Assembly (NCBI GenBank): GCA_905178155.1
Contig: CAJINV010000002.1
Coordinates: forward strand, 11,348,591 to 11,412,590
Source of the DNA: Amoebophrya sp. A120
Taxonomy: Eukaryota; Protista; Dinoflagellata
Direction: 5' to 3'
Length of the DNA stretch: 64,000 nucleotides
In this document: positions 10,201 to 44,200 of the stretch, in pieces
Numbering within the stretch: position 1 is the stretch's first letter
Layout: each line of letters opens with the position of its first letter
The notes under the pieces: model-generated
Told to the model about the DNA's origin: nothing
Seen by the model: only the letters and a program-made list of their open reading frames with translations
The model's database searches: none
Position numbers and translations under genes: made by a program

Positions 10201-13200
10201 TTGCGAAAGTATTTCGCCCCGGGAAAAGCTCGGGCCGGCCGGCGATCTGGCCCGAAGGCTGTGGTCGGGGGACCTCAGACGCCCGGTCACCAAAATGGCG
10301 CGCCCGGGATGCGTCATAGCGTCGTGTGCACGAGGAGAAAGGGGCAGAGGGCGCGCCCTCTCCAGCAAAGACCTGCGCCAAGGTCCTTGGCACCGAAGGC
10401 CTGGCCTTGAAGTCGCCCGGACGAGGCGCGCGCCTTTGCGCGCGCTCTTTGGCTGCGTCTGCCCTTTTGCAGCTAGGGCGCTGCTGCCAATCTCAGCGCT
10501 GTGGATTTTGCCTCTTTCCCTCGGGTTTTTGGAAATGGTTCCTGCTGCTCTACAGCAGGTTTTTTGGATACTCACCCGATTGGCGCAGACTAGTTTTTTT
10601 AGGCCATAGAGCCACGGCCGGAAAGTCGCTTGCTACGATCGGCCGCTGGATATGCAAAGTGCGAAAGCGAAAAATCTTTCCAAGTGGTGGAAACCGACGA
10701 CGCAATTTCCCAGCTTGAGGGCGGAGATCATAGTGCGGATTTTGAAATGCAGAAACAGTTTCTAGCCTCAGAATCAGAGTGCGTTTTTTGCAATGCAAGT
10801 CCAGTTCTCCAGCTGAAATCCGAGGTGTGATTTTTGAAATATAGCTGCACTTTTCGGCCGAAATTCGAGGCGTGTATTTTAAAATAAAAGCACAGCGCCC
10901 CGGCTGCAAATCGAGGCGTGTGTTTTGAAATACAGCAGCATTTTGCGGGCGCGATTTCAATATGCGAATTTTCAAAAACGCAAAGTATTTTGAAGGTATT
11001 TTCGAAGTGTTAGACGAACAGAATAGCCCCCCCGTCTTGTCGGTAAAAAAAAATGATAAATTGAAATTCCCTTTTAGCATAATTTTAATTCACTCGAATG
11101 AGTACTAAAAAACAAATATAAGCAATGAATCTTGAAGCCCGTTGGTGCAGCTGGTGGACGTAAAATAAATCTTGGAAAAAAGGCACAAAGAATCCGGTAG
11201 TACCGTTTCTCGCTCGATCTGGTTTTGCTTGCTCTGCACCGCGAGGTCAGCGTGGTGCTCGGTCCAGACGTCTGTGAAGTTGTTCAGCAGCACGGAAGTT
11301 GGCATCGCCACGACGAGAAGCGCCGTGAGCATGGAGATGATGCCGGCCAGCTGGCCCACTAAGCTATAGGGTGCCATGTCTCCGTACCCCACGGTGGTGT
11401 AGGTGACGAAACTCCACCACATGCTGTGCGGGATGGACTTGAAGGGGGTGGCCTCCACGTCGTCTATGACCCAGTTTCTGCGTACCCACGTCTTCTTCAC
11501 GGGGTCCCAGTGCCCCGACTCCGCGAAGTAGATTATCGAGGCGGACACCGTCACGAAGAGGAGCAACACGAACAGCAGCACGGCGAGCGCGAGGAAAGAT
11601 CGGGTAAACACCTTCGCGATCACCGTTATTGTGTTCACATACTTAGCCACCTTCATGAACCGGAACAACCGGGTCAGCCGCACCACACGCAGCACCGTGG
11701 AACCCTGCACGCCACTGCTGCCCACGAAGAGCTCGAGATAGAACGGCACAATCGCCAGCACATCAACGAGATTCATTGGGGTTAGGATAAAGTCGCTTAA
11801 CCTGTTTGTTTGTTGTTCCGTAGAGGATTTGGATATTCCGATAATTCATGCATGTTGGGCACTCGCATTGGGTTTGGGGGGGGCCTGTAGTTAAAGGTAG
11901 AGGCCTGTCGTCAACTGTAACTGAACATCAGCGATATTAGAAGAGGTTCAATTACAATTTTGGACCAGATAAATACAATTCAATACCTTCTCAATCGTCC
12001 GTGCCTTCTTCCGAGACTGTGCTCCCCGAGGCAGAGTTCAACGCAGCAGTTGCGGCCACGGCACCAGCTTGCAGCGACCTTGGGTCGCTGCGAGCACACA
12101 GGGCGGCATTGTCGGCCGACTGCGTTGTGCCGTGCGTCGCAGCTGCGGTGCGCTCGCTAATCCATGCATCGAGGCGGGTGGAGATTAACTCCCAACGCCC
12201 GCTCTCCCAATGCTCCACCGGGCGAGATTCATGCTGGGCCATGGCCAAGGTGCGCGGCATGTTCAGCCAGTGCATGCACTGGAGATNNNNNNNNNNNNNN
12301 NNNNNNNNNNNNNNNNNNNNNNNNNNNNNNNNNNNNNNNNNNNNNNNNNNNNNNNNNNNNNNNNNNNNNNNNNNNNNNNNNNNNNNNNNNNNNNNNNNNN
12401 NNNNNNNNNNNNNNNNNNNNNNNNNNNNNNNNNNNNNNNNNNNNNNNNNNNNNNNNNNNNNNNNNNNNNNNNNNNNNNNNNNNNNNNNNNNNNNNNNNNN
12501 NNNNNNNNNNNNNNNNNNNNNNNNNNNNNNNNNNNNNNNNNNNNNNNNNNNNNNNNNNNNNNNNNNNNNNNNNNNNNNTTCAATACCTTCTCAATCGTCC
12601 GTGCCTTCTTCCGAGACTGTGCTCCCCGAGGCAGAGTTCAACGCAGCAGTTGCGGCCACGGCACCAGCTTGCAGCGACCTTGGGTCGCTGCGAGCACACA
12701 GGGCGGCATTGTCGGCCGACTGCGTTGTGCCGTGCGTCGCAGCTGCGGTGCGCTCGCTAATCCATGCATCGAGGCGGGTGGAGATTAACTCCCAACGCCC
12801 GCTCTCCCAATGCTCCACCGGGCGAGATTCATGCTGGGCCATGGCCAAGGTGCGCGGCATGTTCAGCCAGTGCATGCACTGGAGATCATGCCCGCAAACC
12901 AGGGCCATGCTGCCCGTTCTCTACACCTCTCTATCTTTCCCCGGGGCTGGCTTTCAGATACCCGCCCATGCGAGTATCTAAGAGCCAGTCGCCCCAGGAA
13001 GATATACCCTGAGCTTCTGCTTCGCGCAGCGAGCATGCCCTCTGTGGAGGGGCGCTCGCGTGGAGCAGAAGCGCAAGGCAGCGACGCACTGGGCTCACGC
13101 GGGGCCGGTATCGCAAGGGACCACGCAACACGTTTCCGCGGGGAAACATGCCGCGACGGGGACCTACGGACGCGACGCAGGGCATTTTCTGAGGTACAGA

Positions 13201-15268
13201 GCGTCGCTGGGGACCACGCGGCACGCTTCGGGCGAAGCGTTTCGCGACGGGGACCTACGGAGAGACACGACACGAAGCTCATAGCTTCGCCGTCGCGTCG
13301 GCAGGGACCGTATATACGCTTCGCTTGAAGCATGCCCCAATGGTGGCCCAAGAGGTAGCACCAAGCTCCTGTGGAGAGGGTGCCTGGGTCACACAGCAGG
13401 CTTCGTGGAAGCGTGGCGCGACGGGGGGACCACAGAGCGGACACCAAACCCTTGCAGGGTTGGTGTCGACAGGGACAGGGACCGCGCAGAACGCTTCGTG
13501 AGAAGCGCGCCCCGAGGGGGACCTGCGGAGACCAACACACCACACCGAGCCGTGGTGGAGTTGATGTCGACGGGGACAACGAACACGCTTCGCAAAAGCG
13601 CGTCGCGATGGGGACTTACGGAGACGCGCGACACCAAACCTGTAGCAAGTTTGCAACACGCGTCGGCGGGGACCACGTGGCACGCTTCGCGTGCCAGAGT
13701 ATGGCCGGGAGCGTGGCAGAGTATGGCCGGCGCGTCTTCACTGGAGTGCACCTGCGTGCCAGCACCTCCAGCTTAGACCTCCAAGGCGTGCGCCTCAGCT
13801 CTCGCTGCAGCACCACCCCGGGGTGCGTCGCATACATCTGCCGCCTCGCGCGCCTTCACTGGAGTGCACCTGCTTGCCAGCACCTCCAGGGAAACGACAA
13901 CACGCGCCCGGCGCGCGCCGTTGCCCCTACAGCGGTGTCGCTCCCGTTAGCTGGCAGCGCTTAACCTCATTTCGCTATTGATCGATATGTTGGACGCGAA
14001 ATACCAAATAAATTTCAATACCTTCTCAAACGTCCGTGCCTTCTTCCGAGACTGTGCTCCCCGAGGCAGAGTTTGAGCAAGTAGTCCTCAGACAGCACCT
14101 CCGGTCTGCAGCCGTGGCAGGTGAGCAGCCGCGCAATGTACTCCGCCGAGAAGATAATGACGCACACGACCTCCATCTGGTCAAAGACCGGCAACTGCTT
14201 TGGTATACAGTCGTCGCGGCAGTACTCAAAGGTCGCCAGGGGCCACGCCTGCCGGTGCACGGTGTCTACGTTGCAGGTGGTTTCGCACGCGGTGTTGGGC
14301 CACACCTTGAACTCGGGCAGGGTGGCCACGATGAAGAGGATGGAGGAGAACATGATGGTCGCGAGCAGGAAAAAGGACAGCCACTTGGCGAGCCGGCAGC
14401 TGGAGGGGTCCTCGAACACCATGAAGACCCGCTCCATGGTGGTGAGCTGGATGAAAAAGCTGGAATTTTTCCACACGGCCACGAACTCCCACCACCCCAC
14501 CACGTATCAACGGTAAAAGTGTCTGGATCTGGAAGATTCTGACACTTGTCATGCACGTTTTGCATGGGCCATGATGTCTGTGATGCATACCCTAGCAATA
14601 CAGATTTTTTGAGGGCTTCTTGATGCGTATTCCGCATGCCAAATGCCTTCTCAGCGTAGCAAAAACTGCATTCCCTTTGCTGGTACTCATGCAATCAAGA
14701 ATTTTTTGGAATCCAGATGCAGCATCACAAGTTGCATTCTTCCAGACCCAGACATTTTTACATTTGATACCGCGCCGCTGCCGTCCACGTCGTAGTGCTC
14801 GGAGCGGAACACCGTGTCCTCGTCCCCGATCACTTTCAGCACCCGCCGCATGGCCCGCTCGAAGTGCTGGATGTGGATCTCGTCGGCGTTGGACGGGTGG
14901 ATACTAAACCGGTCGGACAGGGTCTGGAACAGCTTCCGGAACAGTCCGAGCCCCAGTTCTAACTTCGCGGGGGGAAGCATGCTCTGGTTCTCGCCGTCCA
15001 TGTTTAGAAAGTCGAACCGGGACAAATCCACCGGGGGCAACGCCCGTATCGGCGCCTCGTCGTCCGTCATCTTTTTCAGGAACGAGTCCCCCGACTGGGA
15101 CACCGAGCGGAGCTTCCCTTGCTCCATCACCGGGTCCACCTGCTTCTTGTTCGTATTGTAGTTTGTAGAATTGGACCCAGGGGTCTCCGTGCGCGGTGTT
15201 GGGTCCTCCATCCCCGGTCCGCCGCCCGGACTGATCTGGTCCTTGTTGCCGCCGAAAAAACTACTCAT
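7276..15268 (-). CDS. Voltage-gated potassium channel with N-terminal EF-hand and C-terminal C2 domains (multi-exon)
   Basis: EF-hand DVDGSGAV|GWWEF is rebuilt across an introner. S4 is LRVVRLTRLFRFMK and the pore is TTVGYGD. Canonical GT-AG introns 14021-11802 and 11203-9055 join in frame to C2-like segments (RRIQIEVYDEN...FLGEV; LTVKIIRARYL...VNPVWNEEVSF). The link to the C2 exon is inferred. Confidence 0.8.
9234..11047. mobile_element. Putative non-autonomous TIR DNA element (~1.8 kb) inside a canonical intron
   Basis: Imperfect ~70-bp TIRs (tttactgaaaaggcgacgggggggatctgtctg... / ...cagaatagcccccccgtcttgtcggtaaa). Internal repeats of cttcgtgcacgcgaaggtatgg in both orientations. Degenerate ~45-bp tandem repeats at ~10810-10960. 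No recognisable protein. Confidence 0.6.
12287..12578. other. Assembly gap (N run)
   Basis: 292 Ns; flanks 11979-12286 and 12579-12886 are identical. Confidence 0.99.
12639..13995. repeat. GC-rich intronic insert with degenerate internal repeats (probable mobile-element remnant)
   Basis: Recurrent cgcgacggggacc...cgcttcg units and a duplicated cttcactggagtgcacctg...ccagcacctcca. Flanked by a 60-bp copy of the host exon end. Confidence 0.5.
14505..14769. mobile_element. Introner family A (265 bp)
   Basis: TIR tatcaacggtaaaagtgtctggatctggaag / cttccagacccagacatttttacatttgata. DR ccacg / ccgcg (1 mismatch). Removal rebuilds the EF-hand. Confidence 0.93.
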
Positions 15269-15279
15269 GATATTCCGCT

Positions 15280-15561
15280 TATCCTGTGTAAAAACGTCCC
15301 CACCCCAGAGTTGTCATGCAGATTTGCAATTGCAGGAACATTTGTAATGCGCGTCCCCAAGGGAGGCGCTTCCAATCGTGTTTTGGCATTTGTAATGCTG
15401 CAAAAAGGATAGGCAGATGGATTTGTGATGCGGCTGTCCAGCATGCTAATATGCACTACATTACGGACTGCAACTTGTCATGCGTGGCTCCCAAAACTTA
15501 TGGATTTGTGTTGCTACGTTCCCAACTTGACTATGGGGTGGGGACGTTTTTGCATATGATA
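15280..15561. mobile_element. Introner family C (282 bp), in the probable 5' UTR of the K channel gene
   Basis: TIR tatcctgtgtaaaaacgtccccacccca / tggggtggggacgtttttgcatatgata. DR ccgct at 15275-15279 and 15562-15566. Confidence 0.9.
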
Positions 15562-17188: not shown

Positions 17189-20100
17189 TCACCGTGAGAG
17201 GTCGAGTTCCAGAGCGGCGTGTATTTTGTCTAGTACGTCGGTCATGCGGTTGAGCTTCCCCTCGACTGTATCCATTCGCCCGTTGAGTGCGTCCATCTGC
17301 CCGTGCAGAACACGAGCTGCGTCTCCGCCGCCCACTGAGACTGTAGAAACGGCTCCTCCGTCGCGGCTTTGCGCCCTGCTGAGGCTAGGCGTTTCGGCGC
17401 TGTCCTCTACATCTCCTGGAGCTGGACCTAGTGTCAGTTTGTTTTCAGCGAGCGTACATACTCCTATATGGCCGGACAAAAGTCCTTAATTCCGGATTTT
17501 GCTAGCGATAAAAATAGATAATTTTTTCTATAAATTGAGTGGGTGCGAATTCGGCAGAGCACAGACTCGATGCGCTCAAAGGCCGCAGGTCTTTGTGTTT
17601 TGGTCTCGAGATCATTTCCATCTGGCAGCATTTTTTTTATGATTGCACGAATGCGAACAGTGGGCGTTGCAGTTCTTGCACTTGGGGCGCCCACGCCTCC
17701 GCAAGAAAGCAAACAAACTCGCATGGGCCGCCTTGTATCCAGCGTCTACGAACTAGCTGGCCCATGAGGCATCTTGACCAGTGAGCACGCCGTTCCTGGC
17801 GGGTGCGCCAATAGATGTAGGACCGGCCCCCAGCAGGCCTGCTGCTCCGACACTATTGGGTTGCCAAACATAGGGCAAACCCGCCACGGCCAGGGCGATA
17901 GAACCAAGCTCGCCAATTAATTTGCAGAAAAAAGGGCGACGGCCCAAGCGCGGCGGCGTTCAATTTAATTGATTTCCTAAGGCCGGGCGGCAATAGAATA
18001 GAGGCGCGAGGCCAATAGACTAAGAGGCGCGAGGCCACTAGACTAGAGGGCGTGGGCTTCTGTGATAGTGCTCGCGGGCGCTGGGAAATCAATTAAATTG
18101 AGGGTCGCCACTTTGCAACCCGCCGCCGGCGAGCAGGCAAACCATGCGAAAACAGCGAAGCCAGCGACAGCTCTGGCGCTGCGATCGCCACGATATTAAA
18201 GCAAAACGGCCCCCCGCCTTCGCGCGGCGGCGCCCTGGCGAGCGCCCACCCAATTGGCGCAGTTGCCCGGGGCGGCGTCTCACGCAGATTCTCTTCGGGC
18301 GCAGCAACAGGAAGGCCCCCGCCGTTTTACCCTGCGGCGCGCAATGGGGATCGTTGGCAATCAAGCTAAAGCCCTCCGAAGGCAGCGCGCTTGCCTATTG
18401 TGTGGCGCTTGTTGTTCTACACCTCCTGGAGCTGGACCTAGTGTCAGTTGTTTTTTCCAAAGGTAAGTCCATTAGTAGAAGATGCACCGTATCCAGCGAG
18501 CGTACATACTCGTACTCCTACTCCAGGTCACAAATATTTATAACGATTAAGGCGAGCTGCTTCACTTAGTAGAAGCAACATCAGAATACGAGTAGGGGCG
18601 ATCGTCTTCTAGTAGGTTCAGTGTATGCATGCTCCAGCAGTGGTTTTCTTTTTTTCCATTCGTGCAAAACACGTGATGTCACCTTTCCGTTCTAATACAC
18701 CATCCATTGCTGGTCGAAGCAAGAATAGATCAGCTAGTATTGCTTCGACCAGCAAAAATAAGTACTAAAACGCAGAGTGCTCCGTACTAGCTTCTCCTAG
18801 AGCTAGACCCAGAGTGGTCACAGTCATAATTTCATCTGGCACCAGTTGGAAGTTCATCTTCATCATCATCTTCATCTGCTATACGACGGGGGAACAAGTA
18901 TTAATTAATAGGTACCTGACGCTGCCGCGGGCGGGAGAAGGGATTTCGATCTTGTCCTGCTTCCGCCGGACAAACCTCCGGAGGCTAGCTGCATCCGGTG
19001 TGACGTGAGCATTTTTTGCACGTCGTTTTTCGTTTGCTTCGCTATCTTCAACACCTTGGTGAGCTCAATCGGCGCCTCGGACGTGACGCGCTCCCGCATC
19101 AGGTCGCAGAACTCGTCAATCCCGACGGAGTTGTCCCCGTCCACGTCCAGCGTGTCGAATAACTGCACCGGGGATTCGTTGCCCAGGAAATGCTGCAACT
19201 CCACCTCTATCTCCGGGTTCGTCTCTAATCCCTCGAGTATGGCGTTCTCAAATGTTACATTCTCAACTGTTACATGAATTTGTCATGCAAGAACAGCAAA
19301 AGCGAACGCGGGAAGATTGCGCGCTTTGCATTACAAATTTGGAGCAGATCCAGGTGGTGTTTAGCCCTTCGAGAATTTGTCATGCGAAACACCTTGATCG
19401 TGTGGCGGCTTATGGTCATTTTGCATGACAAATCATGTAACAGTTGAGAATGTAACATTTGAGAACGCCATATCGAGCAGCTCCTCCTTGGAAATCTCGC
19501 CGGACCCGTCCCTGTCGAGCAGAACGAAGATTGCTTTGATTTGCGGCATATGCATTGCAAAAGCATCGTATTCGTACTAGTACAAATTGCATTACAAATT
19601 TTATCAGAAAGAAAAATGGAATTTGTAATGCTAATTGAGGTAAAAAGGTAGGTTTGTCATGCAAGATTTTTTTTTTTTCATTGGGCCCCGCTATTTTTCG
19701 CATATATCAAATTCATCACTAAGTTAGGAGGCCGGTGGCCGTTGCCTAACATGTGATGCAGTTCTACGAATTCACCTGCCTGCCGCAGCAGGTATCAGGG
19801 CCGACACCTTTCACACAGTTGAGCAGAGCGCGTTTATACCATCTTTTTTGTTTTTGTTTTTCTCTTACTTTCGACGCCCGGTCTTGCAGGACTCTCGTCC
19901 TGTGGTCTCTTGGGCTGTATACTGCTTGTCATGCAAGATTGCAATTAGTACGAGTACGATACTTTTGCACAGGATACGGCATCATCTGCTCCAGCTTTTT
20001 TTTCGCGTACACCGCGTTCACCTCCTTGTCATTCTTCGACGATTCCAGCGCGTTCTCGACGAGCACGGCGGTGACCAGGTTCATCATCGCGATACTGACC

Positions 20101-23452: not shown

Positions 23453-24229
23453 GGCGGTCTTTTTGCCTTTACGCCAAAAAAGACGCAACTTCTCTGCCCA
23501 CCATGCCATCGTGAGTAATGTTATGCACGACGGTACGGCGGTCGCGAAAAATCTCATTCCAGGGCTGGCCTCCGTTTGGTTTCGAATCGAAAAACCTTCC
23601 CCGCATGCTATGGCCCCGCCAGGGCCCGCGCCAAGGACAGGCCCTTGGGAGCCCCAAATCGGGCCCATAGCATGCGGATTGGCTTTTTGCTTTTGGCGGA
23701 CTTTGTTTTTTTGTTTTTTTTTTTTGCAAGATGCCGCATCTTCTGGCCTTCAGTCCGCCTCTGAAATGGCGGATTTTGGTGGCGTCTTTTCCGAGGCCCG
23801 AATGTGGGCCAAAATTAGGCCCATACTATGCGGATTCGCTGTTTTTTACGGAGTGCTGCTTTTTGGGCGCCCCTTTTTGGGCGCCCCAAATCGCCAGAAA
23901 CCAAGGCGGTGTGCGCCTCAGAAGGGCGCCCCTTTTGGCGGCTCCCTTGCGTCGTTTTATCAAGCGTGAATCGATAGAATCCGCTCGCGCTTGTTTGACA
24001 GCAAGGCCCCGGCCGCTTGATAAATGGAAATCTTTTATGTCCAAAAACACTTCCGCACGCTTGAAAACTGCCGGTCGTTTTGCGTAATGCATGGCAAAAA
24101 AACCGCTAGATTAGAACGTTCGTGACCTCACTACATACTATTTTTCGTCGTTTAATGATAAGTATAGAACAAAAAATTTTAACGCACACCTCCAGAAACC
24201 TCCACCAACTACAACTCCCGCGACCTCCA

Positions 24230-26035
24230 ACCCCAACTCCCGAAACCTTCCGACCAAAACCTCCGCGACCTTTACCCGCGGCCCCCGAAACCTCCGACCT
24301 CCGGGCCCCGGGGTCCCCGAAACCTCCGACCTCCGGGTCCCGGGGTCCCCGAAACCTCCGACCTTCGGGGCCCGCGGTCCCCGAAACCTCCGACCTCCGG
24401 GGCCCGGGGTCCGCGAAGCCTCCGACCTCCGGGCCCCGGGGTCCGCGAAGCCTCCGACCTCCGGGCCCCGGGGTCCGCGAAGCCTCCGACCTCCGGGCCC
24501 CGCGGTCCGCGAAGCCTCCGACCTCCGGGCCCCGCGGTCCCCGAAACCTCCAACCTCCGGGTCCCGGGGTCCCCGAAACCTCCGAACTCCGGGCCCCGGG
24601 GTCCCCGAAACCTCCGACCCCCGGGCCCCGGGGTCCCCGAAACCTCCGACCTCCGGGCCCCGGGGTCCCCGAAACCTCCGACCTCCGGGGCCCGGGGTCC
24701 CCGAAACCTCCGACCTCCGGGTCCCGGGGTCCCCGACAGCTCCGCACTCCGGGTCCCGCGGTCCGCGAAACCTCCGACCTCCGGGTCCCGCGGTCCGCGA
24801 AACCTCCGACCTCCGGGTCCCGCGGTCCGCGAAACCGCCGACCGCCGGGTCCCGGGGTCCCCGAAACCGCCGACCGCCGGGCCCCGCGGCCGGTCCCCGA
24901 AACCGCCGACCTCCGGGCCCCGGGGTCCCCGGAACCGCCGACCCCCGGGTCCCGGGGTCCCCGAAACCGCCAACCTCCGGGTCCCGGGGTCCCCGAAACC
25001 GCCGACCACCGGGTCCCGGGGTCCCCGAATCCTCCAACCTCCGGGCCCCGCGGTCGCCGAAACCTCCGCCCCCCGAGTCCCGCGGTCCGCGAAAGACCTC
25101 CGGGCCCCGGGGTCCCCGAAGCCTCCGACCTCCGGGGCCCGGGGTCCCCGAAACCTCCAAACTCCGGGGCCCGGGGTCCCCGAAACCTCCGACCTCCGGG
25201 GCCCGCGGTCCCCGAAACCTCCGACCTCCGGGGCCCGCGGTTCGCGAAACCTCCGACCTCCGGGGCCCGCGGTCCGCGAAACCTCCGACCTCCGGGTCCC
25301 GCGGTCCGCGAAACCTTCGACCGCCGGGTCCCGCGGTCCGCGAAACCTTCGACCGCCGGGTCCCGCGGTCCGCGAAACCTCCGACCGCCGGGCCCCGCGG
25401 TCCCCGAAACCGCCGACCGCCGGGTCCCGGGGTCCCCGAAACCGCCGACCGCCGGGTCCCGGGGTCCCCGAAAACGCCGACCGCCGGGTCCCGGGGTCCC
25501 CGAAACCGCCGACCGCCGGGTCCCGGGGTCCGCGAAGCCTCCAGCCTCCGGGTCCCGGGGTCCGCGAAGCCTCCGACCTCCGGGCCCCGCGGTCCGCGAA
25601 ACCTCCGACCTTCGGGTCCCGGGGTCCGCGAAACCTCCGACCGGACCTCCGGGCCCCGCGGTCCCCGAAACCTCCGACCTCCGAGTCCCGCGGTCCGCGA
25701 AACCTCCGACCTCCGGGTCCCGGGGTCCGCGAAACCTCCGACCGGACCTCCGGGTCCCGCGGGCCGCGAAACCTCCGACCCTCGGGTCCCGCGGTCCGCG
25801 AAACCTCCGACCGGACCTCCGGGTCCCGGGGTCCCCGAAATCTCCAACCTTCGGGTCCCGCGGGCTCCGAAACCTCCGACCACCCGGTCCCGGGGTCCCC
25901 GAAACCTCCGACCCCCGGGTCCCGCGGTCCGCGAAACCTCCGACCTCCGGGTCCCGGGGTCCGCGAAACCTCCGACCCCCGGGTCCCGCGGTCCCCGAAA
26001 CCTCCGACCTCCGGGTCCCCGGAACCTCCGACCTG
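24230..26035. repeat. GC-rich minisatellite, ~32-bp unit
   Basis: Unit gaaacctccgacctccgggccccggggtcccc recurs at 24287, 24319, 24351 and onward for ~1.8 kb. Confidence 0.97.
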
Positions 26036-27575
26036 GGCTAGGCAGGCCGCTAGGGCTTGTGGCTAGGCAGGCCCGCCGCTAGGGCTCGAGGCTAGGCAGG
26101 GAGGCCGCTAGGGCTCGAGGCTAGGCAGGCCGCCAGGGCTTGGTGAGGCTAGGCAGGCCGCTGGGGCCCGAGGCTAGGCAGGCCGCCAGGGCTCGAGGCT
26201 AGGCAGGCCGCTAGGGCTCGAGGCTAGGCCGCTAGGGCTTGGGGCTTGGCAGGCCGCTAGGGCCCTAGGCCAGGGCGGCCGCTGGGGCTTGAGGCTAGGA
26301 AGGCGGGCCACGGGGGCTCGAGGCTAGGCAGGCCGCTCGGGCTGGCCCGGGGCTAGGCAGGCCGCTCGGGCTGCCTCGAGGCTTGGCAGGCCGCTACCTA
26401 TGGCTCGGGGCTACCTAGGCAGGCCGCTAGGCTAGGGCCGGCCCGAGGCCAGGCTAGGCAGGCCGCTAGGCTAGGGCCCGAGGCTGGGCAGGCCGGTCGG
26501 GCTGGCTCGGGGCTTGGCAGGCCGCTCGGGCTGGCCCGGGGCTGGGCAGGCCGCTCGGGCTGGCTCGGGGCTGGGCAGGCCGCCCGGGCACGAGGCTAGG
26601 CAGGCGGCCCGCTCGGGCTCGAGGCCAGGCAGGCCGCTCGGGCTCGAGGCTAGGAAGGCCGCTCGGGCACCGCACCGCGAGGCCAGGCAGGCCGCTCGGG
26701 CCCGGGGCTAGGAAGGCCGCCCCGCTCGGGCTCGGGGCTAGGCAGGCCGCTCGGGCTCGGGGCTAGGCAGGCCGCTAGGGCTCGAGCCCAGGCAGGCCGC
26801 TAGGGCTCGAGGCCAGGCAGGCCGCGAGGCGAGGGCTCGAGGCTAGGCAGGCCGCGAGGGCTCGAGGCTAGGCAGGCCGCGAGGGCTCGGGACTAGGCAG
26901 GCCGCTAGGGCTCGAGGCCAGGCAGGCCGCTAGGGCTCGAGGCAAGGCAGGCCGCTAGGGCTCGAGGCTAGGCAGGCCGCTAGGGCTCGGGGCTAGGCAG
27001 GCCGCTAGGGCTCGAGGCTAGGCAGGCCGCTGGGGCTCGGGACTAGGCAGGCCGCTAGGGCTCGAGGCTAGGCCGGTGGGGCTCGAGGCTGGGCTGGCCG
27101 GTGGGGCTCGAGGCTAGGCCCGTAGGGCTCGAGGCTAGGCCCGTAGGGCTCGAGGCTAGGCCCGTAGGGCTCGAGGCTAGGCCCGTAGGGCTCGAGGCTA
27201 GGCCCGTAGGGCTCGAGGCTAGGCCCGTAGGGCTCGAGGCTAGGCCCGTAGGGCTCGAGGCTAGGCCCGTAGGGCTCGAGGCTAGGCCCGTAGGGCTCGA
27301 GGCTAGGCCCGTAGGGCTCGAGGCTAGGCCCGTAGGGCTCGAGGCTAGGCCCGTAGGGCTCGAGGCTAGGCCCGTAGGGCTCGAGGCTAGGCCGGCCGCT
27401 AGGGCTCGAGGCTAGGAAGGCCGGTAGGGCTCGAGGCTCCTGGGCCCGGCCGCTAGGGCTCGAGGCTAGGCCGCTAGGGCTCGAGGCTAGGCCGCTAGGG
27501 CTCGAGGCTGGGCCGCTAGGGCTCGGGGCTGGGAGGGCCGCTAGGGATCGAGGCTAGGCCGCTAGGGACTAGGGC
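26036..27575. repeat. GC-rich minisatellite, 21-25-bp units
   Basis: Degenerate gggctcgaggctaggcaggccgcta units, with a homogeneous gggctcgaggctaggcccgta run at ~27105-27390. Confidence 0.97.
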
Positions 27576-27874: not shown

Positions 27875-29700
27875 CTACCTCTGGACGTGGTTGGACTCCT
27901 GCTGGCACAAGTAACAGGTGATGCGCTCGATTTGGCTCCCCGCGTTCCTGAGCCGTTTGCTATGGAGCGCAGAAGCACTGTGTTCATGCGAAACGTGAAG
28001 CTCGTACTCGCCCTCGACTTTTGCATGGCAGTGCCTGCAATACCTCGTCGACTGCTCGACGAGCACGAGGGGGTCCCCGCCCTCCCCGCAGACACCCACA
28101 TGATGTCGCGTCTAAGTGAAGATGGTGGATTCCGTAGCTGTCCTACTAACTATTCTTATCTCTCGTCTCTTGGCCTTAAGTAAGTACTTTGGTGCATCAC
28201 GAAGCATGTCGATTCGTCTTGTCATTTCTCTCAGTCAAGGTCGTCCTCGTCTTTCTCATTTCTCTTTTCCTTCCACAAAATATGACCTTGCTCAACACCA
28301 CAGAGTTGATAGCGCTGCGGTTACGCTAAATAGCCAGCCACTGGCAATATCAGTATGCAAGCGGAAGCGCATCAACCTGAACATACAAACACATCAATGC
28401 ACATACACCACTATGCTAAAGAACTCCACCAAATGAATGGACAACACGAATGCTCCAATCCACCGCTTCTCACGAAGTGCGTCTGGTTTTCCCTTCCCCT
28501 CCTTGGATAATTTCTATGATGAAGGCTTCATCATAGAAATTATCCAAGGATTCGGAAATCGAAATTCAAGTTTATATCTTCGCAAACTGAAGATGCCATT
28601 GCAAAATGTTATGAAATCATACTGGAGGTGCTGGTCCTCGCAGTACGGTTACAGCCGTTCCGGTTACAGCCGTAGCTCTTTTGGCGGACAGGCTATAGAA
28701 ACGCAGAACTATTACAATTATAATTGTGTTTTCTAGAGAGACCGAATATCAATATCATCTACGTCGTCATTGTTCATTGTTACAACGGAGGGTGGAGTGA
28801 ATACAACTTTGTTTCCGCAATCTCAAATTGGCTGTTTCGCTAGGGTCTTCATCTTCTACTAGGCAGGCCTCTTCGCCTTTTGTGGCCTTTGCCGACCTTT
28901 TTATCTCTTTCTGTTTCTTTCACAAAAACTCACACCGCATAAGTGCGCCAGTCTGTTGTACCGCCCTGGTGGTCCTGGGTCTTCTATCTTCTTGATACAC
29001 GGCGACCAGGGTGTTCATTGACAATTCTACTGGTTGTGGTCGTTGAGCAGGAGCTATAATACTAGCATGTCGATGTCGAAAACACCCACCGAGCTGCTTC
29101 TACTGCTAGTAGTCAACAAGTCACTAGGGCGAGGGCCAACATCGAACATTCATTATCTGCTAGCACCTACCGTTCATCATAGGCCGAATCCGAGTCCGTA
29201 GCTGCGAGAGAAACTAGAGAAACTAGTTGTAGCCACTAGGTAACGTCATTGAATGATGGCAAGAGAGTTTCGCTTTTCCAGAAACTACTTCTTGCTCTTG
29301 TGTCTTTTCTTTTCATGCGGTTTGTGAAATACACATACACTACTTAGTTAGAATAAGAAACATAAATCGCTTTTGATATAAATAGAATAAGTCGAAAGAA
29401 ACGATAAAAAGCTGCTGAAGAGTTTTGCTAACCTCAAAAAGTAGATTTATTATTTTTGATATCAATACAGGTGGGGGTGGCAGAAAAGGGAGTCACACCT
29501 GTTACACTTCATTGACAACGGGAACGGCTCGTCCATGATCATCGTCAGAATGAAGGCATTTAGCTGTATCAATGCTGTTGCTGTCTCTGTTGCTGTGCTG
29601 ACCGCAAAATGTATAGCGGCGCATCGATCGAGACAACCGTTACCATTGTCAACTAAAAAACATTTTTCCTTGGACTGTCGTACCAAGGCATCTTCAGGTG
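27875..29700 (-). CDS. Possible multi-exon zinc-finger protein (AN1-like motif); model very uncertain
   Basis: Cys/His-rich pieces MKCNRCDSLFCHPHLY (resembles AN1 CxxCxxxFCxxH) and YCRHCH...CYLCQQ on the minus strand. Confidence 0.35.
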
Positions 29701-35235: not shown

Positions 35236-38200
35236 TTACGTATTTTCTTTTTCCTCTACTCCCGTAGTCTCTCGTGTCGGCCTGGCTTCGCTTTGACCGG
35301 GCCCGGTGGAGGCATTACCTCCACTCAAGATAACATCACTTTTGACCTCGCCAGAAACTACGCTGGAAGTTGTAGTGGTTTGATTTTTTCGTGCAGGAAC
35401 TGCAACTACACATCCGTCGATGTTGACGCGAGAAACAACTGCGCCACCAGCTTCATCGTCGATTGACGGTTCCCTCGGGCAGTTCTTGATGATGCCGTCA
35501 AAGTCATAAAAATCGGTGAGCAGAAATTTTGGTTTCTCCCTGTCCAGGTAAGGCATGATCACCTGGCGAAGACAGCGATCGGAGACTTTACCCGACAAGG
35601 GATCCAACTCCACCTCCACAGGCCAGCAGCTTTTACGCTGCAGCGCGAGCAAGTCCCGCGTCAAGTTGTTCACTCTGCCCCGAGCTGGTGCAGCCGGCTC
35701 GTCTTGTTCCCCACCAGTCATCTCAGTATTCTCATTGTGATTACTAGAGTCGGTTCCATCGGGAGCTCTGAGTGCGCTGTTTTCATTTGTTCCAAGTACA
35801 GCGGAAAGCAAACTCTGTCTTGCTTGTTCTTGCTCGCTTTCACGACCTAGGAGCATGGCAGCAGCAGTAGGAGGAACAACAGAGGCGCTCTGTCGTGTTG
35901 TTGATTCCCTCGCTGAAGTAGAGCTTGAGGACACAGAGCCGCCAACATCTTCGGAATTTTTGCCTCTGCTGGTTCCGTCTTGCGGCTGCAGTGCCGCCGC
36001 GGGGCCCGTGGTGGATTGGCCTTGCATTTCGACATCTTGTTCTTTGGCATTTCCAGTGTGGTGCTGCGCCGCGAGACCCGGGCCTGTTCCGCCTACGCAT
36101 ACGTCGTCTTTCTTGGTGTCCTCGTCGTGTTCTTGTTGACCGACTCTGGTTCTTTGCGGATTAGAAACTCCAACATGATGTAGTTCGTGATGGTCTTCGA
36201 CGTCCCCTTGCGGTTGTAGCTCGACGGAGGATCCCCATCCCGCCCTGTTGACATGATTATGATCCCCTGTTCCAGCTGCCGCTGCGTTGCTCTGGTTGGC
36301 AAGCAGCTCCTGATCGTTCTCCCGCGGCCCGTTATTAATAGTAGAATGGTTGTGTCGTTCATCTTGTGCAGGAGCAGCTATGCCTTCGTCAGTGGTCTGG
36401 CCGTTTTCATCTTCAACTTCGTCGCCTTGTTGCTCCATGTCAGCATCCTCGTGTTCGTCGCCTACTTGTTCGAAGTCAGATTCAGACAGATCCTCATCGT
36501 CATCGTCGTCCTCTTCGTCTTCGTCGCCCACCTCCTCCTCGTCGATTATGATTATGCCTGCTCCGCGACCGGCCATGGGGCCGACCTCTTGTTCATCATC
36601 CTGCTCGTCTTGATCGACCAGAGCAGCTGGTTCGCCTAAGTCGTCACCAGCAGCGTCATGCTCATTCTCGTCATCAGCCAAATTCCCGTTCTCCAGGTGC
36701 TCCTCCTTCCGCCGCCAAAAGTACAGCGAAACCTGGGCAAACTGGGGCAGCGAGTACTTCTTGTGCACCGCACACATCTATCAAATGCAAAAATGTCTGG
36801 GTCTGGAAGAATGCAACTTGTGTTGATACTGCGTCTGCATTATCCAAAAATGAAAATCTGTATTGCATGAACAGCAAAAGAGGTCTGGTTTTGGCCACGG
36901 CGAGATGGCATTTCTCATGCGGTATAGGCATCAGAAAGCCCTCACAAGATCTGTGATGCTAGGGCATGCATCGCAGACATCAGGAGTCACGCAAAATGTG
37001 CATGACAAACCGGCGGGATATAAGTTGGGGAGCACTGATAGATAAAAAGGTAGCATGCACAGGGGAGAGTGGCCCCTGTTGCAATGCTGACCTATAAAGA
37101 AAGAGAAAGATCACGAAGATCCGTATCGTACAAGCAAAAGGACCCACGCATTGCGGGGCGGGATCCGTATCGTGAAAGATCCAGTAGTTTTTCTAGTCTA
37201 TGCTGTGCCCCTTACTAGCTTGCCGTCGAGTAGAAGTAGAGCTGATTTTATTGCAATTGCCGCTTTTGCGATATTTTTAGCGGACCCCGCCAAAATACCC
37301 TCATGCTTTTCCCGAGTAAACTCATTGCAACTAGAAACATCCCCTTCCTGCTTCGGCGCACCCCATCTGCCTAGTCGCCCCTAGGTAGATGAGGGAATTT
37401 TTTGTGTGGGCTTCTTCCTGCTTAATTAATCTGACAGGGGCTACGTCTTTTTTTTCTGTCTTGCCAGCAGAGTGGGTGAGGGAACTAAACAGGGATCGAC
37501 AACGAAGTGCAGGACCAGAGGACGAGAGCCGAAAAGGTACAAATCGGGAAAAAATGCCGTATACCCGCGTAACCTGGTATGTGAATTGTGCTACACTCTT
37601 CACATTTCAGAGATCGCACCCGCTCGCGCAAAAAATTAGATAGTGAATGATGAAAAATTTGCGAGCCAATAAAAAAAAAAAAAAATGCGCATGACAAACC
37701 TTGCCTCCTTCCAGACCCAGACTACATTTTTACATTTGATAACATCTCTGTCGGCTGGCGAATAGGCTGCCCTTCGCGGTTTCGGGGTACGAACTCTTTC
37801 GGGGGCACGGACGCAAGCTGGTACAAGTTGCGGACCTGGTGATGAAGACGACACTATCTTCACAATGAGTGGATAAATGAAGTGCTGAAATAACGCGCAG
37901 TGGGCTCATAGCGCTGTGCGCGTGTGCGCACTCAGGACTACCTGCGAGGAGTCTCTGTTTTGCTCCTGCACACCATAAATCCCACAAAAAAAAGAAGAAC
38001 GAGTTCTACATGTAAAAAAACCGAAAAAACCGAAACCTAAATCCAGCATCAGCATGTCATCTGAATTGCAAATGAAAGCAGTAATTTTGATGTGTACTCA
38101 CTGCAGCAATGGTAGAAAGAGACGAACAACGATACCAGCGATCTTGAATGCGCGTCCTGTGGAAACTCGAGCTGGTCGAGGATAGCGCTCGCGTTCGCTG

Positions 38201-41200
38201 GTCCTGTGTACTCCCCGTCATGGTGCTGGATTTGCCGAACCAGCTGATGGAGTTGTAATTGTTGATGTAGCTCATGCTCATCGACCGAGAGTTTGACTGA
38301 GAAAAATAACAATAGTGAAACTAACTCCAGCTCCATACATTTACATGCATACTAAACCATTATAAGTGCAGTGTGTAGATGTACCACTTCGGCGCAGTGG
38401 AGCACCGCATGCGCTAGCAGGCTGGGCAACTCTAACAAGTAGTCGACTTCCAAGATCGTGAGCTCCAGCAGGTAACTGGCGATCAAATTTCTGAGGACGA
38501 AAAGGGCCAGGCCCTGCGAGTCGACCTTGATGTTGTCCTGAGGTTTGGACAGCATGTCGACGAAACCCGTGCGCGAAATGGACACAAGCAATCTGTCCTT
38601 CTTAGGGGTAGCACTTGGCAGGTAAAATTCTGCCCAAACGGGAACCGTTCTTGAAGATCGTGATGTTGCCACAGGTCGCCCTGTCGCGGTCCTTGGCAGA
38701 CTCGTTGTTGATATCCTTTGTTTTTGTAGTCCATCGCTTTCATCTCCGGAAGCAGGAGCAAGAGACACAACCTCGGCGGGCTCTTGCTCGTTGTTCGTTA
38801 GTAGGTCGATGTCTTCATCTTCTGGAAGTAGGTAGTTCTTGTTTGGACTAGAAGTCAACTTCCGCTGTTGTTCGACGCTTGGGCGGAGGTTCCGAACTGT
38901 CAAAAGCTCCTCTTGCTGCTCTTCCTTGAAAATCTGGAGAAATGACACTGCGGTGGGTGCGCGCAGCACGTAACCGTATTTCAGCAGGGTGGCCAGTTAT
39001 CAAGTGTAAAAGTGTCTGGGTCTGGATCTGGAAGATTGCCAGGCTTGTCATGCATATTTTGCATAACCCATGATGCCTGTAATGCATGGCCGAGCATCAC
39101 AGATTTTTAAAGGGCCTTCTGATGCGTATTCCGCATGAGAAACGCCCACTCCGCGTAGCACAAACTGAACTCCTCTTGCTGGTCATGCAATACAGATTTT
39201 TTTTACCTTCCAAAGACAGCATCACAAGTTGCAACCTTCCAGACCCAGACATTTTTACATTTGATACCAGTACATCAAACTCCATTTGTCGGATGTTATC
39301 CTCGGTGTACGTGTGTTCGCAAATGAAACCTGAGTTGCATTTTTTTTTGTAGTAGTTACTCTTACTCAATCACAACAATACTATCCAGAGCCAAGCAAAG
39401 GACAGAAAGAAAACTAGCATCTATGTATCACCGTATTCATCTTCAATGGTGACTTCAAAGTTGTTTTGCTTTTGCTTTACCTCTACCTCTTTTAGGTGGT
39501 TTATTTGGTATAAATATTTATAATACCGAGTTCATCGACAATCGCCGGCCTCGTTTCCTCTACCTTGCTCGCGATGAGCAGGCACGCCAGGCCGACGAGC
39601 TGCAGCTTCTTGCGGGACTGCAAAGCGTGGTGGTTGAGAAACCGGTCCAGGATTTGGATGGCCAGGAACAGCGTGGATATCCATTCGAACTTGAATTTGT
39701 GATGAACTTCAATCAGCCAGTCGACCAGCACGGAGCGCATCTCCACCGTTATGTCCTTCTGATTCTCGTACATGACCATCTTCTCCTTCAAAAAAAGCCG
39801 CTCCGTTTCAAACAAATACTTCCTCGCTGCAACACCGTAGTAGTCAAACTCTTGCTCATCTTCTTTGAAGAGGGGTGATTCTTCTTTACCTCGACATCCG
39901 TGTTTTACACCTCCTCCTGGCACGACCGCTCTACTTGAACAAGACTTGGTCGTTCCTGTACTAGAACCCTTGGATCTAAAAGTTGTATCTTCTTCGCATG
40001 AGGTGGACGATTTCGCAGATAAGCTTCTTGCTCTCGTCCTTGGAGGCGCGAACGGCCTCTTGAAGTCCATCGGCAAATCTGGGCTGAACCGCTCAAAGTC
40101 CCGTAGCTTCGCGTGCGCAGCCCAGAAGCTCTGTCGTGTGCGCCATTGCGGTACGGCATCCAGCCGCTCCGACGGCAGCCATGCGGGATTGGGCTGCATA
40201 TAATAATTTTGAAGTGTTGCTTGCGAGTAGATCACCGCAGTGTTGCTGGCTGGGTCTTGCGGTACTAGCGGTACTAGTGCTCCTCCGCCCGCATCATTGT
40301 GGTAGGGCGCCCCGGCTGTCGCTATGGCGTAGTTCCTTGCGTTTCTCCCACTCCAGCACGTGTCGGCCGGAGATGCGTTGTACTTTTTCCAGATGTTTTC
40401 CGGATCCACATCCCCTCGTATGGCGTCGAAGTACTCGTGGGCCAGCGCCTCCTGAATCTGCATGCGCTTCTTTGGGTCCATGGTCAGCAGCGCCCGGAGC
40501 AGCCGCACCCCTTTCTCGCCGCCAATGTTCGCCAAAAACCGCACCTGTTCCGCGTTGTACCGGGCTCGGAGCTGCTTTCTCGGCAAGGCGAGCTCCTCGT
40601 CGCGAAAGGAAAAGAGTTTGCAGGGCCGCCAGAAAGGGAAGTCGCGGCCTCGCACCACGTCCCACTCAATCGGGGTACCCAACAGCCCGAACAGCTGGTA
40701 CACCCAACTCACTTCGCTGTCCAACACCAAACTACCGAGGTTTTGCGGCAGCCAGTGGGATACCCATGAGCAGCCGATCTTGTTCATGCACAGGGTCTAT
40801 CAAATGTAAAAATGTCTGGGTCTGGAAGAATGCGCGATTTGTCATGCTGCTTTTCCATGACCCATGAGGTCTGGAATGCAGGACCTAGCATGACAGATTC
40901 TGCGCGACCTTTCTAATGCCTATCCTGCGTGAGAAACTACCTCCCGACTTGGTCAAAACTAGACGACTTTTGGTAATCATGCAACACAGATTTTTGCATG
41001 CTGCAGATTTAGCATGACAAGTTGCAATCTTCCAGACCCAGACACTTTTACATTTGATAGGGTCCCCAACAGCAGCCCGCACTGCCACAGGTCGCTGTCG
41101 AACAGCGGGCGGCTGGGCGACCGCGGCGGTATGGAAGCGTCAGGTTTGAAATCGACAAAGTTGAAATGATTTGTCATGCATAAAATGCAACTCAGAGACT

Positions 41201-44200
41201 GTCTCTATTGCAGAGGACGCAAGGGAGGCAGATTGTAGTGCTGGCAAGGGTCCAGAATTGGGTTGCTGATTAGCATGACAGAGGGGAGTCCTTTTGCCCG
41301 AAACAGCATGACAGACTTGCTCTAGAAGCCAGGAAAATTTGTCATGCGCCAATTAAAAACTAGGCGCCAACTGGTATCCGTTTTACGCATCACAAATTAC
41401 TTCAACTCTGACGATTTCGATCCTGACACTCCCATAGAAGGCGGGGGACGCGCGGTAGACGAGGCACTCGCGCTCGTGCCGGTGATCGCCGAGTTCATAT
41501 GGAAGCAGGTGCCTTTCGGGACCGTATCTTTTGGGTTTGCTGTGGTCTCAGCCCCGGATGTTGTAGATGATCCAGACGACGAAGCTGCTGCATCAACTGT
41601 GACCCCTGCCGTCTTATTTGCTCGTTCCATCAACGTGGAAGCCGGAGGACCACGTACTTGCTGTGAAGATATTTTTTTTTTTCGTGCGAACAGCAAGAGA
41701 ACAGGAGTAGTCAGGATCTTGTACCTCATCCTGTGAGAGAACCAAAAATAGAACATTCAAAAGCTAGCAAAGCTACTCAGTCACTGAAAATTATGCGTCG
41801 CACGCTCATACATCGAGTTGTTTGAATCCGAAAGCATCAACGTAGATGTCGATCACCAACTTCTGCTGGTGCGCGTGAGTACTTAGTACTTGCAAAATCA
41901 TTTCCAAAAATTTCTATATGTAAAATCAAAAAAAGCAGCAGTCTAACAAGTAGATCACTGTACGACTTCTGCGTCTGCCGGCGTTCTGGTAGCACGTTCG
42001 ACAGGCGCAGTCGCTCCTGGCTCCCCTTGAGAAGGTAGTAAAAGCGCCTCTGGCGGTTTTTTCACGTAGGAGATGCCTAAATTATGGCACACTCAAACGT
42101 TACATTGATCGCTGTTCCAGGACTTTGGCCGGATTTGTTGTGCGAAGCACAAGCACCTGTGGCTACCTATGCATGACCCAGGGCCAGGAGGTCGTGGCTC
42201 GCATGACAAATTCATCCTGAAGCGCAATCTGGCACTCAAATCCGTGCCAAATTTGTGATGCAGATGCAAGCACAAGCAGCGAAAGCTTCTTGTTGTCTCT
42301 TCTGCTTTTCGTTTCTTTTGCCTTTCGTTTACGTTTTGCTGTTCTTGCATAACAAAGCACCACGGAATCACCATCAAGGAAGAGCGATCGATGGAACATT
42401 AAAATTTGAGAGCGCCATAAAAGTTTTCCCGATCGTGGGACAGCTTCTCGGACGGTTTTTCCTGAATCCCGTACCCGAAAAAAAAATCCAGTAGCTCGAT
42501 GGGGCTCCCTATCCTGAGTAACGACGTCCCCTTTTCAAGCTTGTCATGTAAATTTGGGCATGCTCATGATGTTTCTCATGCGGCTCTTGTTCTAGTCGTC
42601 CTCTCGTGTATTTAGTTTGGAAGCGATGAAACAAATTCTACTTCATTATTGTTATTCTCTATATGAGGATCCGGATCTGTGCTGCGGCTACACTAGCTGC
42701 AGCGAGGCACGAAATCTGAAGATCCTTCCAGGTTCGTCAAGCCTCAGAACAAACATCTTCCGAGTTGTTCCTTGTGTTGGCAATTTCTCAACATCACCGT
42801 CTAGGAACTTGTTTTTGCTCAGGATACGCCCAGTCGTCTCATCGAGCACAACCTTGCTGGCGTCCAGGTTTCCGTGCCCATTCCCGGTCGAGTGCAAGCG
42901 GTGCAGCAGCAAAAGCACGTCCCACATCATGACCTTAATCGTACGCGGCGTCAGCCCGTGCTTCCGGGCGTTGTTCACATCTTCTGGGCCAGGCTCGGCC
43001 GCTTGTTGTTCAACATCATCTTCCAAGTGTACGTTGCGCTGAAAGTCGTAGCCTCGGGCTGCGGCCTGCCGCTGCTTGTCGTGGCATCGGAGGTCCCGCC
43101 CCACAGTATTTTTCGCTTGTTGGGACGATGAGGACGAGGAGGACAAAGATGATGTCTCAGCTCCCCCACCAGCCGCGCCTCCGGCAGATCCGGGAGCCAG
43201 GAGAGCACCGGAACCGCCCTGGTGTCGTGGCAGGTCGTGTGCAGTCGCCGGGGCCGCCGCTGGGTTGCTGGACACTACCCAATCTCTCGCCTTGTTTCGC
43301 GCGGCAGCCTGCTCGGCTGCCAACCGCGGATCGGGATCTGCAATGTTAACGCCGGTGTTATTCGCAGTTTGGGCAAGAGCAGTTGGTGCAGTTGTAGCTT
43401 CCCCGCACTTATTTGGCGGCGGCATTTTTGAAGAAGACGATGAACTTGAGGCTGCGGCAAGAGGAACTTCCCCCGAAGATGATGTCGTTGAGCTGGTGCA
43501 AGAAGTAGTGTTAGAAGATACCAGCAACCCGCCTTCCGAGGTGCCTTGGTCTCCGGGTGGAATGCTCGTGTTTGGAGCTGCTGTCGACACCGTGCTGGAG
43601 TTCGATAGCGTGTTGAGCTTCAGAAAGAGTGATGAAGACGATGAGGAGGACGACCGAGCGGAAGCCGCACCACCAGCGTCGGCTGCTGGTCCACTAGCGT
43701 CGACTCCAGCGTTGTGGTTGGCTTTGCCTCGAGCCGCCGCTCGGGAAGCGGCGCTGCCCCGCTTCAGCAGCCCGCCTCCCCCGCCGGCAGTTGTGGTAGT
43801 GGCAGGGAAACTATCAGAGGAGCTCGAGGAGGAAGAGGACGAGGATGAGCCCGCCATAGAAGGTAGTAGCAGTGGTGGGTGCTGAGGGTGATCGACATGG
43901 CTTGCACTAGAAGCAGGCGCCGCAATTCTTGACGGTAGAAGATCCACCCTATCAAACATTTTCATTTCCATTTTCAGTAGATGATGAAGATGAACCCCTG
44001 CACTTGTTGGTCTTGAGAAAAAAGAAAGACGAAACAAACCCTCGTCCACTTCTCCGAAATAAAACTACGGTGGAGCTCCAGCTCAACATTCATTTCTCCC
44101 CTGTGCCTACGCATGTGTACAATCGGAATTGACAAAAAAGCAAACAGACAATAATACTGCATATCTGTGTCCATTGCCTCAAGAGTGTCGTCTTGCTCGT

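Follow-up and report, generated by a model that had tools for sequence, protein, structure and literature searches.

Host gene and host introner

The window, i.e., the whole stretch of 64,000 nucleotides of contig CAJINV010000002.1 from Amoebophrya sp. A120 that was analyzed, contains a minus-strand cyclin gene which is interrupted by an introner with terminal inverted repeats (TIRs), a small DNA transposon. This introner belongs to a family, here called family A, and carries a 670-bp insert. The features of the locus are as follows:

35236..36773, minus strand: final coding exon of the host cyclin gene, which lies downstream of the introner
36774..36778: left copy of the host introner's 5-bp direct repeat, same sequence as 37742-37746
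36779..37741: family A TIR introner with TAT...ATA ends, 963 bp with the insert and 274 bp without it
36779..36823: left terminal inverted repeat of the introner
36993..37011, plus strand: 5′ copy of the insert's target-site duplication (TSD), 19 bp, begins with AAAA
37012..37681, plus strand: insert, probably retroposed, 670 bp, non-coding, antisense to the host gene
37047..37094, plus strand: predicted hairpin 1, 18 pairs, without G-U
37118..37178, plus strand: internal direct repeat of the insert, 2 x 17 nt, 88%
37350..37473, plus strand: core, ~90% identity to a second, more abundant sequence family
37361..37395, plus strand: predicted hairpin 2, 14 pairs, within the core
37668..37681, plus strand: AATAAA merging with the A tail (11 A, or as many as 15 if those of the repeat are counted)
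37682..37700, plus strand: 3′ copy of the TSD, 19 bp, with one derived substitution
37694..37741: right terminal inverted repeat, in which 3 nt are inserted compared with the other copies
37742..37746: right copy of the 5-bp direct repeat
37742..37835, minus strand: host exon upstream of the introner in the transcript, placed by depth arithmetic

The host gene could be recognized by matches to Cyclin_N (E 7e-27) and Cyclin_C (E 7.5e-5) in upstream frames of the minus strand. In the minus-strand segments 39504-40796 and 38355-38996, the C-terminal piece of a CDK-like kinase is followed by Cyclin_N in one frame, after which Cyclin_C follows; the CDK-like piece matched Pfam Pkinase at E 0.027, which is below the cut-off. 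Judged from the reading frames, the host is a possible kinase-cyclin fusion gene, and this candidate fusion gene is broken by four TIR introners (41130-41436, 40798-41059, 38998-39266 and 36779-37741). A comparison of the host cyclin frame with metagenome contigs yielded one weak locus (33% over 39 residues), which is not an orthologue.

The window contains five copies of family A, which exhibit a very high depth in the DNA-type run X1. A script identified in the window at least 10 elements with TAT...ATA ends and 5-bp direct repeats, plus one with a poorer repeat. A degenerate TIR element at ~42083-42420, whose ends resemble family C, was missed by the strict scan. According to the accessible part of Farhat et al. 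(2021; PMC7789003), the inverted repeats of A120 introners start with TAT and are accompanied by direct repeats of 3-5 nt. As the host element has TIRs starting with TAT and a short direct repeat, it was assigned to this introner type, which it also resembles in its length of ~260 nt, its non-canonical ends and its hairpin. This copy differs in carrying an insert with the marks that target-primed reverse transcription (TPRT) leaves. The word "nested" is absent from the accessible main text of that paper, and LINE, SINE and non-LTR are absent from the accessible part of one of its supplements.

Removal of the insert together with one flanking repeat leaves an element of 274 bp, which can be aligned over its full length with the other four family A copies in the window (262-269 bp). 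Its identity to them is 71-80%, and those four are 69-82% identical to each other. Since the emptied element can be aligned in full, the 19-nt repeat is a genuine duplication of sequence that the introner already contained. This duplication contains the motif gcatgacaa, which is located subterminally in the introner families A, B and C despite their different TIRs, and in both orientations. Exact occurrences of the motif in the window lie inside TIR elements in 20 of 24 cases, the remaining four being found outside the listed elements at 15311, 15475, 19654 and 19926. The motif is a candidate common site for a transposase or a splicing factor.

Some further features were observed elsewhere in the window. 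Two adjacent long GC-rich tandem arrays with units of ~32 nt and ~21 nt and opposite GC skew occupy 24106-27567, and a near-perfect palindrome of 51 nt (fold z ~ -11) lies at ~28450-28550. An exact duplication of 308 nt across an N gap (11979-12886) likely results from an overlap in the assembly; the first 60-68 nt of this duplication are found again at 14006-14073.

Anatomy of the insert

The two copies of the direct repeat, 36993-37011 and 37682-37700, are identical at 18 of 19 positions (95%) with a spacing of 689. At the mismatch, the first copy has the letter which is also found in three of the four other family A copies, so that the change in the second copy is the derived one. The insert ends in a run of 15 A (37671-37685), the final four of which are part of the duplication, and AATAAA is located at 37668-37673. 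As the tailed strand is antisense to the host transcript, this AATAAA cannot end the latter. None of the plus-strand frames of the insert is longer than ~70 codons, and two such frames had no Pfam match. The preliminary description of this locus had reported a 670-bp insert nested in a family A introner, with 19-bp repeats that start with AAAA and have one mismatch, a 3′ A tail, a duplicated target containing gcatgacaa, an internal repeat and no convincing ORF, and all of these points were borne out by the present analysis.

Among the four A/T runs of at least 10 nt in the window, two are accompanied by a flanking duplication, namely that of the insert and one near 19667-19941. The latter was rejected as a candidate, as it seems to be a fortuitous pair of gcatgacaa, a motif that is common.

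Nature of the insert

A search against Rfam (E<=10) over 36500-38200 yielded three weak matches, none of which lies inside the insert, and ARAGORN did not detect any tRNA in it. The only ARAGORN call, a tRNA-Pro at 24565, is located inside the GC-rich tandem array, a long way from the insert, and is likely spurious. No exact A or B box of Pol III is present in the insert, and candidates with one mismatch did not give a convincing pair at the 5′ end. Pol III terminates at T runs, and as the insert contains four internal ones (5, 5, 6 and 8 nt), a Pol III transcript is unlikely. A classical SINE was therefore rejected, there being no tRNA or Rfam head, no Pol III box pair and these four T runs. 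The preliminary wording "SINE-like or ncRNA-derived" thus does not hold in its strict sense. The insert shares with classical SINEs, as described in the accessible part of PMC3747384, that it is non-coding, tailed, flanked by a TSD and apparently mobilized by TPRT. Unlike those with tRNA, 5S or 7SL heads, it is headless, without a box pair and longer than usual. In the accessible part of PMC3229502, SINE matches are reported only against a human library.

HDV-like and hammerhead ribozymes were searched on both strands with motif descriptors, of which the HDV-like one is uncalibrated on a known ribozyme, and neither was found. A truncated copy would have lost such a head anyway. Neither a spliced-leader relic nor an Sm site nor a telomere template was detected in the insert by motif search.

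The insert had also been described as structured. This is correct for two predicted hairpins (18 and 14 pairs), but the folding signal is local and does not extend over the whole insert. In comparison with shuffled sequences, the folding of the whole insert reached z -2.92 on the plus strand, where none of 20 shuffles did as well, and z -1.86 on the minus strand, where 1 of 20 did. Windows of 100 nt with z < -2 amounted to 4 of 14 on the plus strand of the insert versus 6 of 78 in the background, and those of the insert are all located around the two hairpins. As the stem of hairpin 1 lacks G-U pairs, its strand cannot be told.

Copy number and related sequences

Four of 17 listed sequencing runs were compared with the window: the DNA-type run X1, the RNA-type runs X3 and X4, and X15 with raw RNA reads. 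Summed contig depth is not equal to copy number, and distinct versions of a sequence are the firmer evidence for a multi-copy status. No second copy of the insert could be detected within the window by self-BLAST. In X1, the unique flank contigs have depths of 25.3 and 31.4, and the bins of the insert reach 82, 109, 339 and 104. At 37272, three versions with depths of 54.6, 28.9 and 42.7 are present in X1, the sum of which (126.2) corresponds to 4.0-5.0 times single copy; one of these versions differs in 8 letters and a 6-nt gap within 200. A further X1 contig with several changes and a depth of 239.7 (7.6-9.5 times single copy) covers part of 37350-37414. An X4 contig matches 37350-37473 only, with 13 differences, one gap and unaligned letters on either side. 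The versions and depths in X1 together with this core-only match in X4 show that the insert belongs to a small family whose copies are nearly identical, and that a second family shares a common core of 124 nt at ~90% identity. The relative of this core (37350-37473) has a depth of 240 in X1 and of 56-79 in X3, its flanks being unaligned; it may represent a subfamily that has diverged and is expressed, or else a module that was shuffled.

One X3 contig originates from another copy of the insert. It shows 12 differences in 311 nt. Its match begins at 37010, so that it includes two letters of the TSD, and the contig extends for 110 letters upstream of this position. These letters lean toward a longer element of which the present insert is a truncated form, but could be the flank of that other copy. 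Outside the core, the depth of the insert in X1 is nearly flat (82, 109, 104).

These findings agree with the multi-copy status that had been proposed before. The insert is neither single-copy nor the ancestral interior of family A, the two findings that had been named as speaking against a mobile element: several versions of it exist, and empty family A copies dominate. The introner bins of X1 have depths of 1e5-6e5 versus 82-339 in the insert, and X1 contigs join 37008-37011 directly to the right TIR of family A. As empty elements dominate in X1, the insert does not represent an ancestral interior, and all four other copies of the window are empty at this site, too. It is also very improbable that the insert is an artefact of the assembly. 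Among the X1 pieces listed, none spans either junction of the insert, and at 37114 both covering X1 contigs differ from the letter of the window, probably owing to an error in the assembly or to a version that is not listed. However, a tail together with an imperfect duplication of 19 bp is no signature of assembly, and X1 contigs without any difference run from the unique flanks into both ends of the introner, reaching 36804 on the left side and 37714 on the right side.

An origin from cellular polyadenylated RNA, such as a structured ncRNA or the 3′ UTR of an mRNA, that was retrocopied by a LINE acting in trans appears unlikely. According to the accessible parts of the respective papers, retroposition of mRNA is common in dinoflagellates (PMC5585692) and the possibility of polyadenylated snRNAs in Amoebophrya has been considered (PMC7789003), and the good coverage of the related core in X3 would fit a cellular transcript. 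Yet, the several versions at 96-100% and the second family at ~90% suit a family of transposable elements better than one-off copies, and the insert exhibits neither an Rfam match nor any spliced-leader, Sm or telomere-template motif.

Probable excision of the introner together with the insert

The introner 36779..37741 appears to be a non-canonical intron of the host gene which is skipped by the RNA-type contigs. X3 and X4 were taken to be RNA by guess, though both of them also skip two further introns. Their host contigs match the window without any difference as far as 36773, which immediately precedes the left direct repeat. Beyond this base they continue for 165 letters in X3 and 305 letters in X4. 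The contigs of both runs account for 41 letters of the bin 37793-37939, and as an independent check the exon lengths fitted to the bins for X4 (92 + 100 + 10 + 103) add up to 305. In X4, the insert bins have depths of 0.5, 2.3, 6.5 and 0 versus 26.3 for the exons. The neighboring introner A4 shows the same signature as the host introner, with a contig piece that ends at 38992.

Four splice models were compared. Two of them, with a skip of 968 nt, open a frame of 781-784 codons, a GT-AG cut of 966 nt yields 318 codons and retention yields 278. No register of the 968-nt cut has GT-AG ends. The arithmetic has a resolution of 1-2 nt, as a neighboring intron was fitted at 171 nt where the frame needs 172. 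At this neighboring site (38198-38384), the contigs fit an intron of ~171-172 nt (GC-AG, 172 nt, keeps the frame) over a nearby 181-nt intron with GT-AG. The mean pairing of the TIR stem is predicted at 0.83 with the insert and 0.87 without it, compared to 0.80-0.92 in the four other copies. We infer from these data a precise excision of introner and insert together as 968 nt (±1-2 nt), in line with the junction that the preliminary description had predicted. An introner-free allele would yield identical X3 and X4 contigs, and the joint is absent among the matches listed. From X15, 134 reads were placed, one of them at 99% or above and none on the host exons; as this run likely does not contain the present strain, it is uninformative on expression. 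That excision tolerates a longer loop is plausible and unsurprising, given that TIR-bearing Amoebophrya introner families of ~1.2 kb are on record in the accessible supplement of PMC12130899.

Origin of the insert

Taken together, the insert is probably a TPRT copy of a low-copy non-LTR RNA of the Pol II type, likely 5′-truncated. Within this reading, the 3′ UTR of a LINE and a non-autonomous derivative similar to RIME or NARTc are about evenly probable. The TPRT origin, already suggested by the preliminary description, is supported by the TSD, the A tail after AATAAA and the T-rich nick site. The locus could have formed in four steps. At the start, a family A introner with its 5-bp direct repeat would have occupied the cyclin gene, where its sequence lies today. 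A LINE endonuclease may then have nicked the T-rich strand at the subterminal AAAA of the introner, and reverse transcription primed on the A tail of the RNA would have produced the 19-bp duplication. TIRs and direct repeats, which are intact in the sequence, would have kept the predicted ability to pair. Finally, introner and insert would be excised as a single non-canonical intron of 968 nt, as the RNA-type contigs suggest, restoring the frame. As excision would restore the frame, the insertion was likely neutral and would have survived by chance and not by targeting.

The bottom-strand nick site of the insert would be TTTT/G; human L1 favors a TT upstream of the AAAA, which is missing from this target. 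In the accessible part of Kojima (2010; PMC2912911), human L1 is reported to cut TTTT/AA with a TSD peak at 14-16 bp, and 5′ microhomology is found in ~80% of truncated L1 copies. Compared with truncated LINEs of the L1 type as described there and in the accessible part of Ohshima (2013; PMC3747384), the insert is similar in its A tail, its TTTT nick, a TSD near this peak and a possible 5′ microhomology of 2 nt, and its length falls within the 100-1,000 bp of truncated copies. It differs in having no coding remnant and in the nick at TTTT/G instead of TTTT/AA. With the trypanosomatid elements RIME, NARTc and SIDER (0.25-0.5 kb; accessible part of PMC2323293), to which it is likened by description, the insert has in common that it is short, non-coding and not derived from Pol III transcripts, with an A-rich end and a TSD. 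Unlike these elements, it lacks an HDV-like ribozyme, as far as the uncalibrated descriptor can tell, and a known partner LINE. No autonomous LINE partner was seen in the analysis. Non-LTR elements are reported in Amoebophrya in the accessible parts of PMC7789003 and PMC12130899. In the latter (Gozashti et al., 2025), introner families of A120 are classed as non-LTR, e.g., fam99 with 5 copies, ~784 bp and an 11-bp TSD, which shows non-LTR activity in this lineage. Those families are introners themselves, whereas the insert, which is set apart from them by description, is a passenger without a splice function of its own.

Alternatively, the insert might be a full-length, structured non-autonomous retroposon with defined ends that is targeted to AAAA-gcatgacaa and uses introners as spliced-out safe havens. 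This appears quite unlikely. The insertion lies exactly at the motif common to families A, B and C; this is one insertion, however, and no sign of targeting, as 20 of the 24 motifs of the window lie in TIR elements and any subterminal insertion would contain one. Introners account for 17% of the A120 assembly and coding DNA for 40.6% (accessible part of PMC7789003), so that, if the genome is alike, at least about a quarter of surviving random insertions would be located in introners. Moreover, upstream of the visible 5′ border of the other X3 copy, no family A sequence follows. The nearly flat depth outside the core fits an element of defined length as well, random truncation predicting a rise toward the 3′ end. 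The hairpin core is common to two families, and of the three listed changes at paired sites of hairpin 2, two keep the plus-strand pairing (G-U to G-C and U-A to U-G) and one breaks a pair, with one more variant in the bulge, which gives weak evidence for pairing. The core depth of 56-79 in X3 versus 7.4 for the host gene would be in favor of this alternative, although contigs cannot show transcript ends, strand or level. The 3′ part is nearly missing from the RNA-type contigs (3′ bin depths of 0.57 in X3 and 0 in X4), which speaks against a discrete, tailed transcript from the insert version.

Returning to the truncated non-LTR copy as the preferred origin, the insert is probably a harmless passenger and not a new kind of element. 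A search of the open-access literature, in the accessible parts of the papers, found neither retroposons nested in introners nor SINE-like elements of Amoebophrya. As far as searched, the insert is a previously unannotated, low-copy non-LTR copy that lies inside an introner of a known kind and is likely removed with it by splicing.

Implications

A hyperparasite of intron-forming transposons in a lineage that splices non-canonically, i.e., a group of structured non-coding retroposons of the Pol II type with a swappable 124-nt core that home to the subterminal motif common to the introner families and are spliced out free of cost, is decidedly improbable. If the copies were targeted to introners, they would add a new host-parasite layer among mobile elements that would be worth study. 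An introner that was enlarged 3.5-fold by an insertion 41 nt from one end appears to be still precisely excised; this is one case and not decisive. The insert thus represents an undescribed low-copy retroelement fragment and, at the same time, a small natural experiment.
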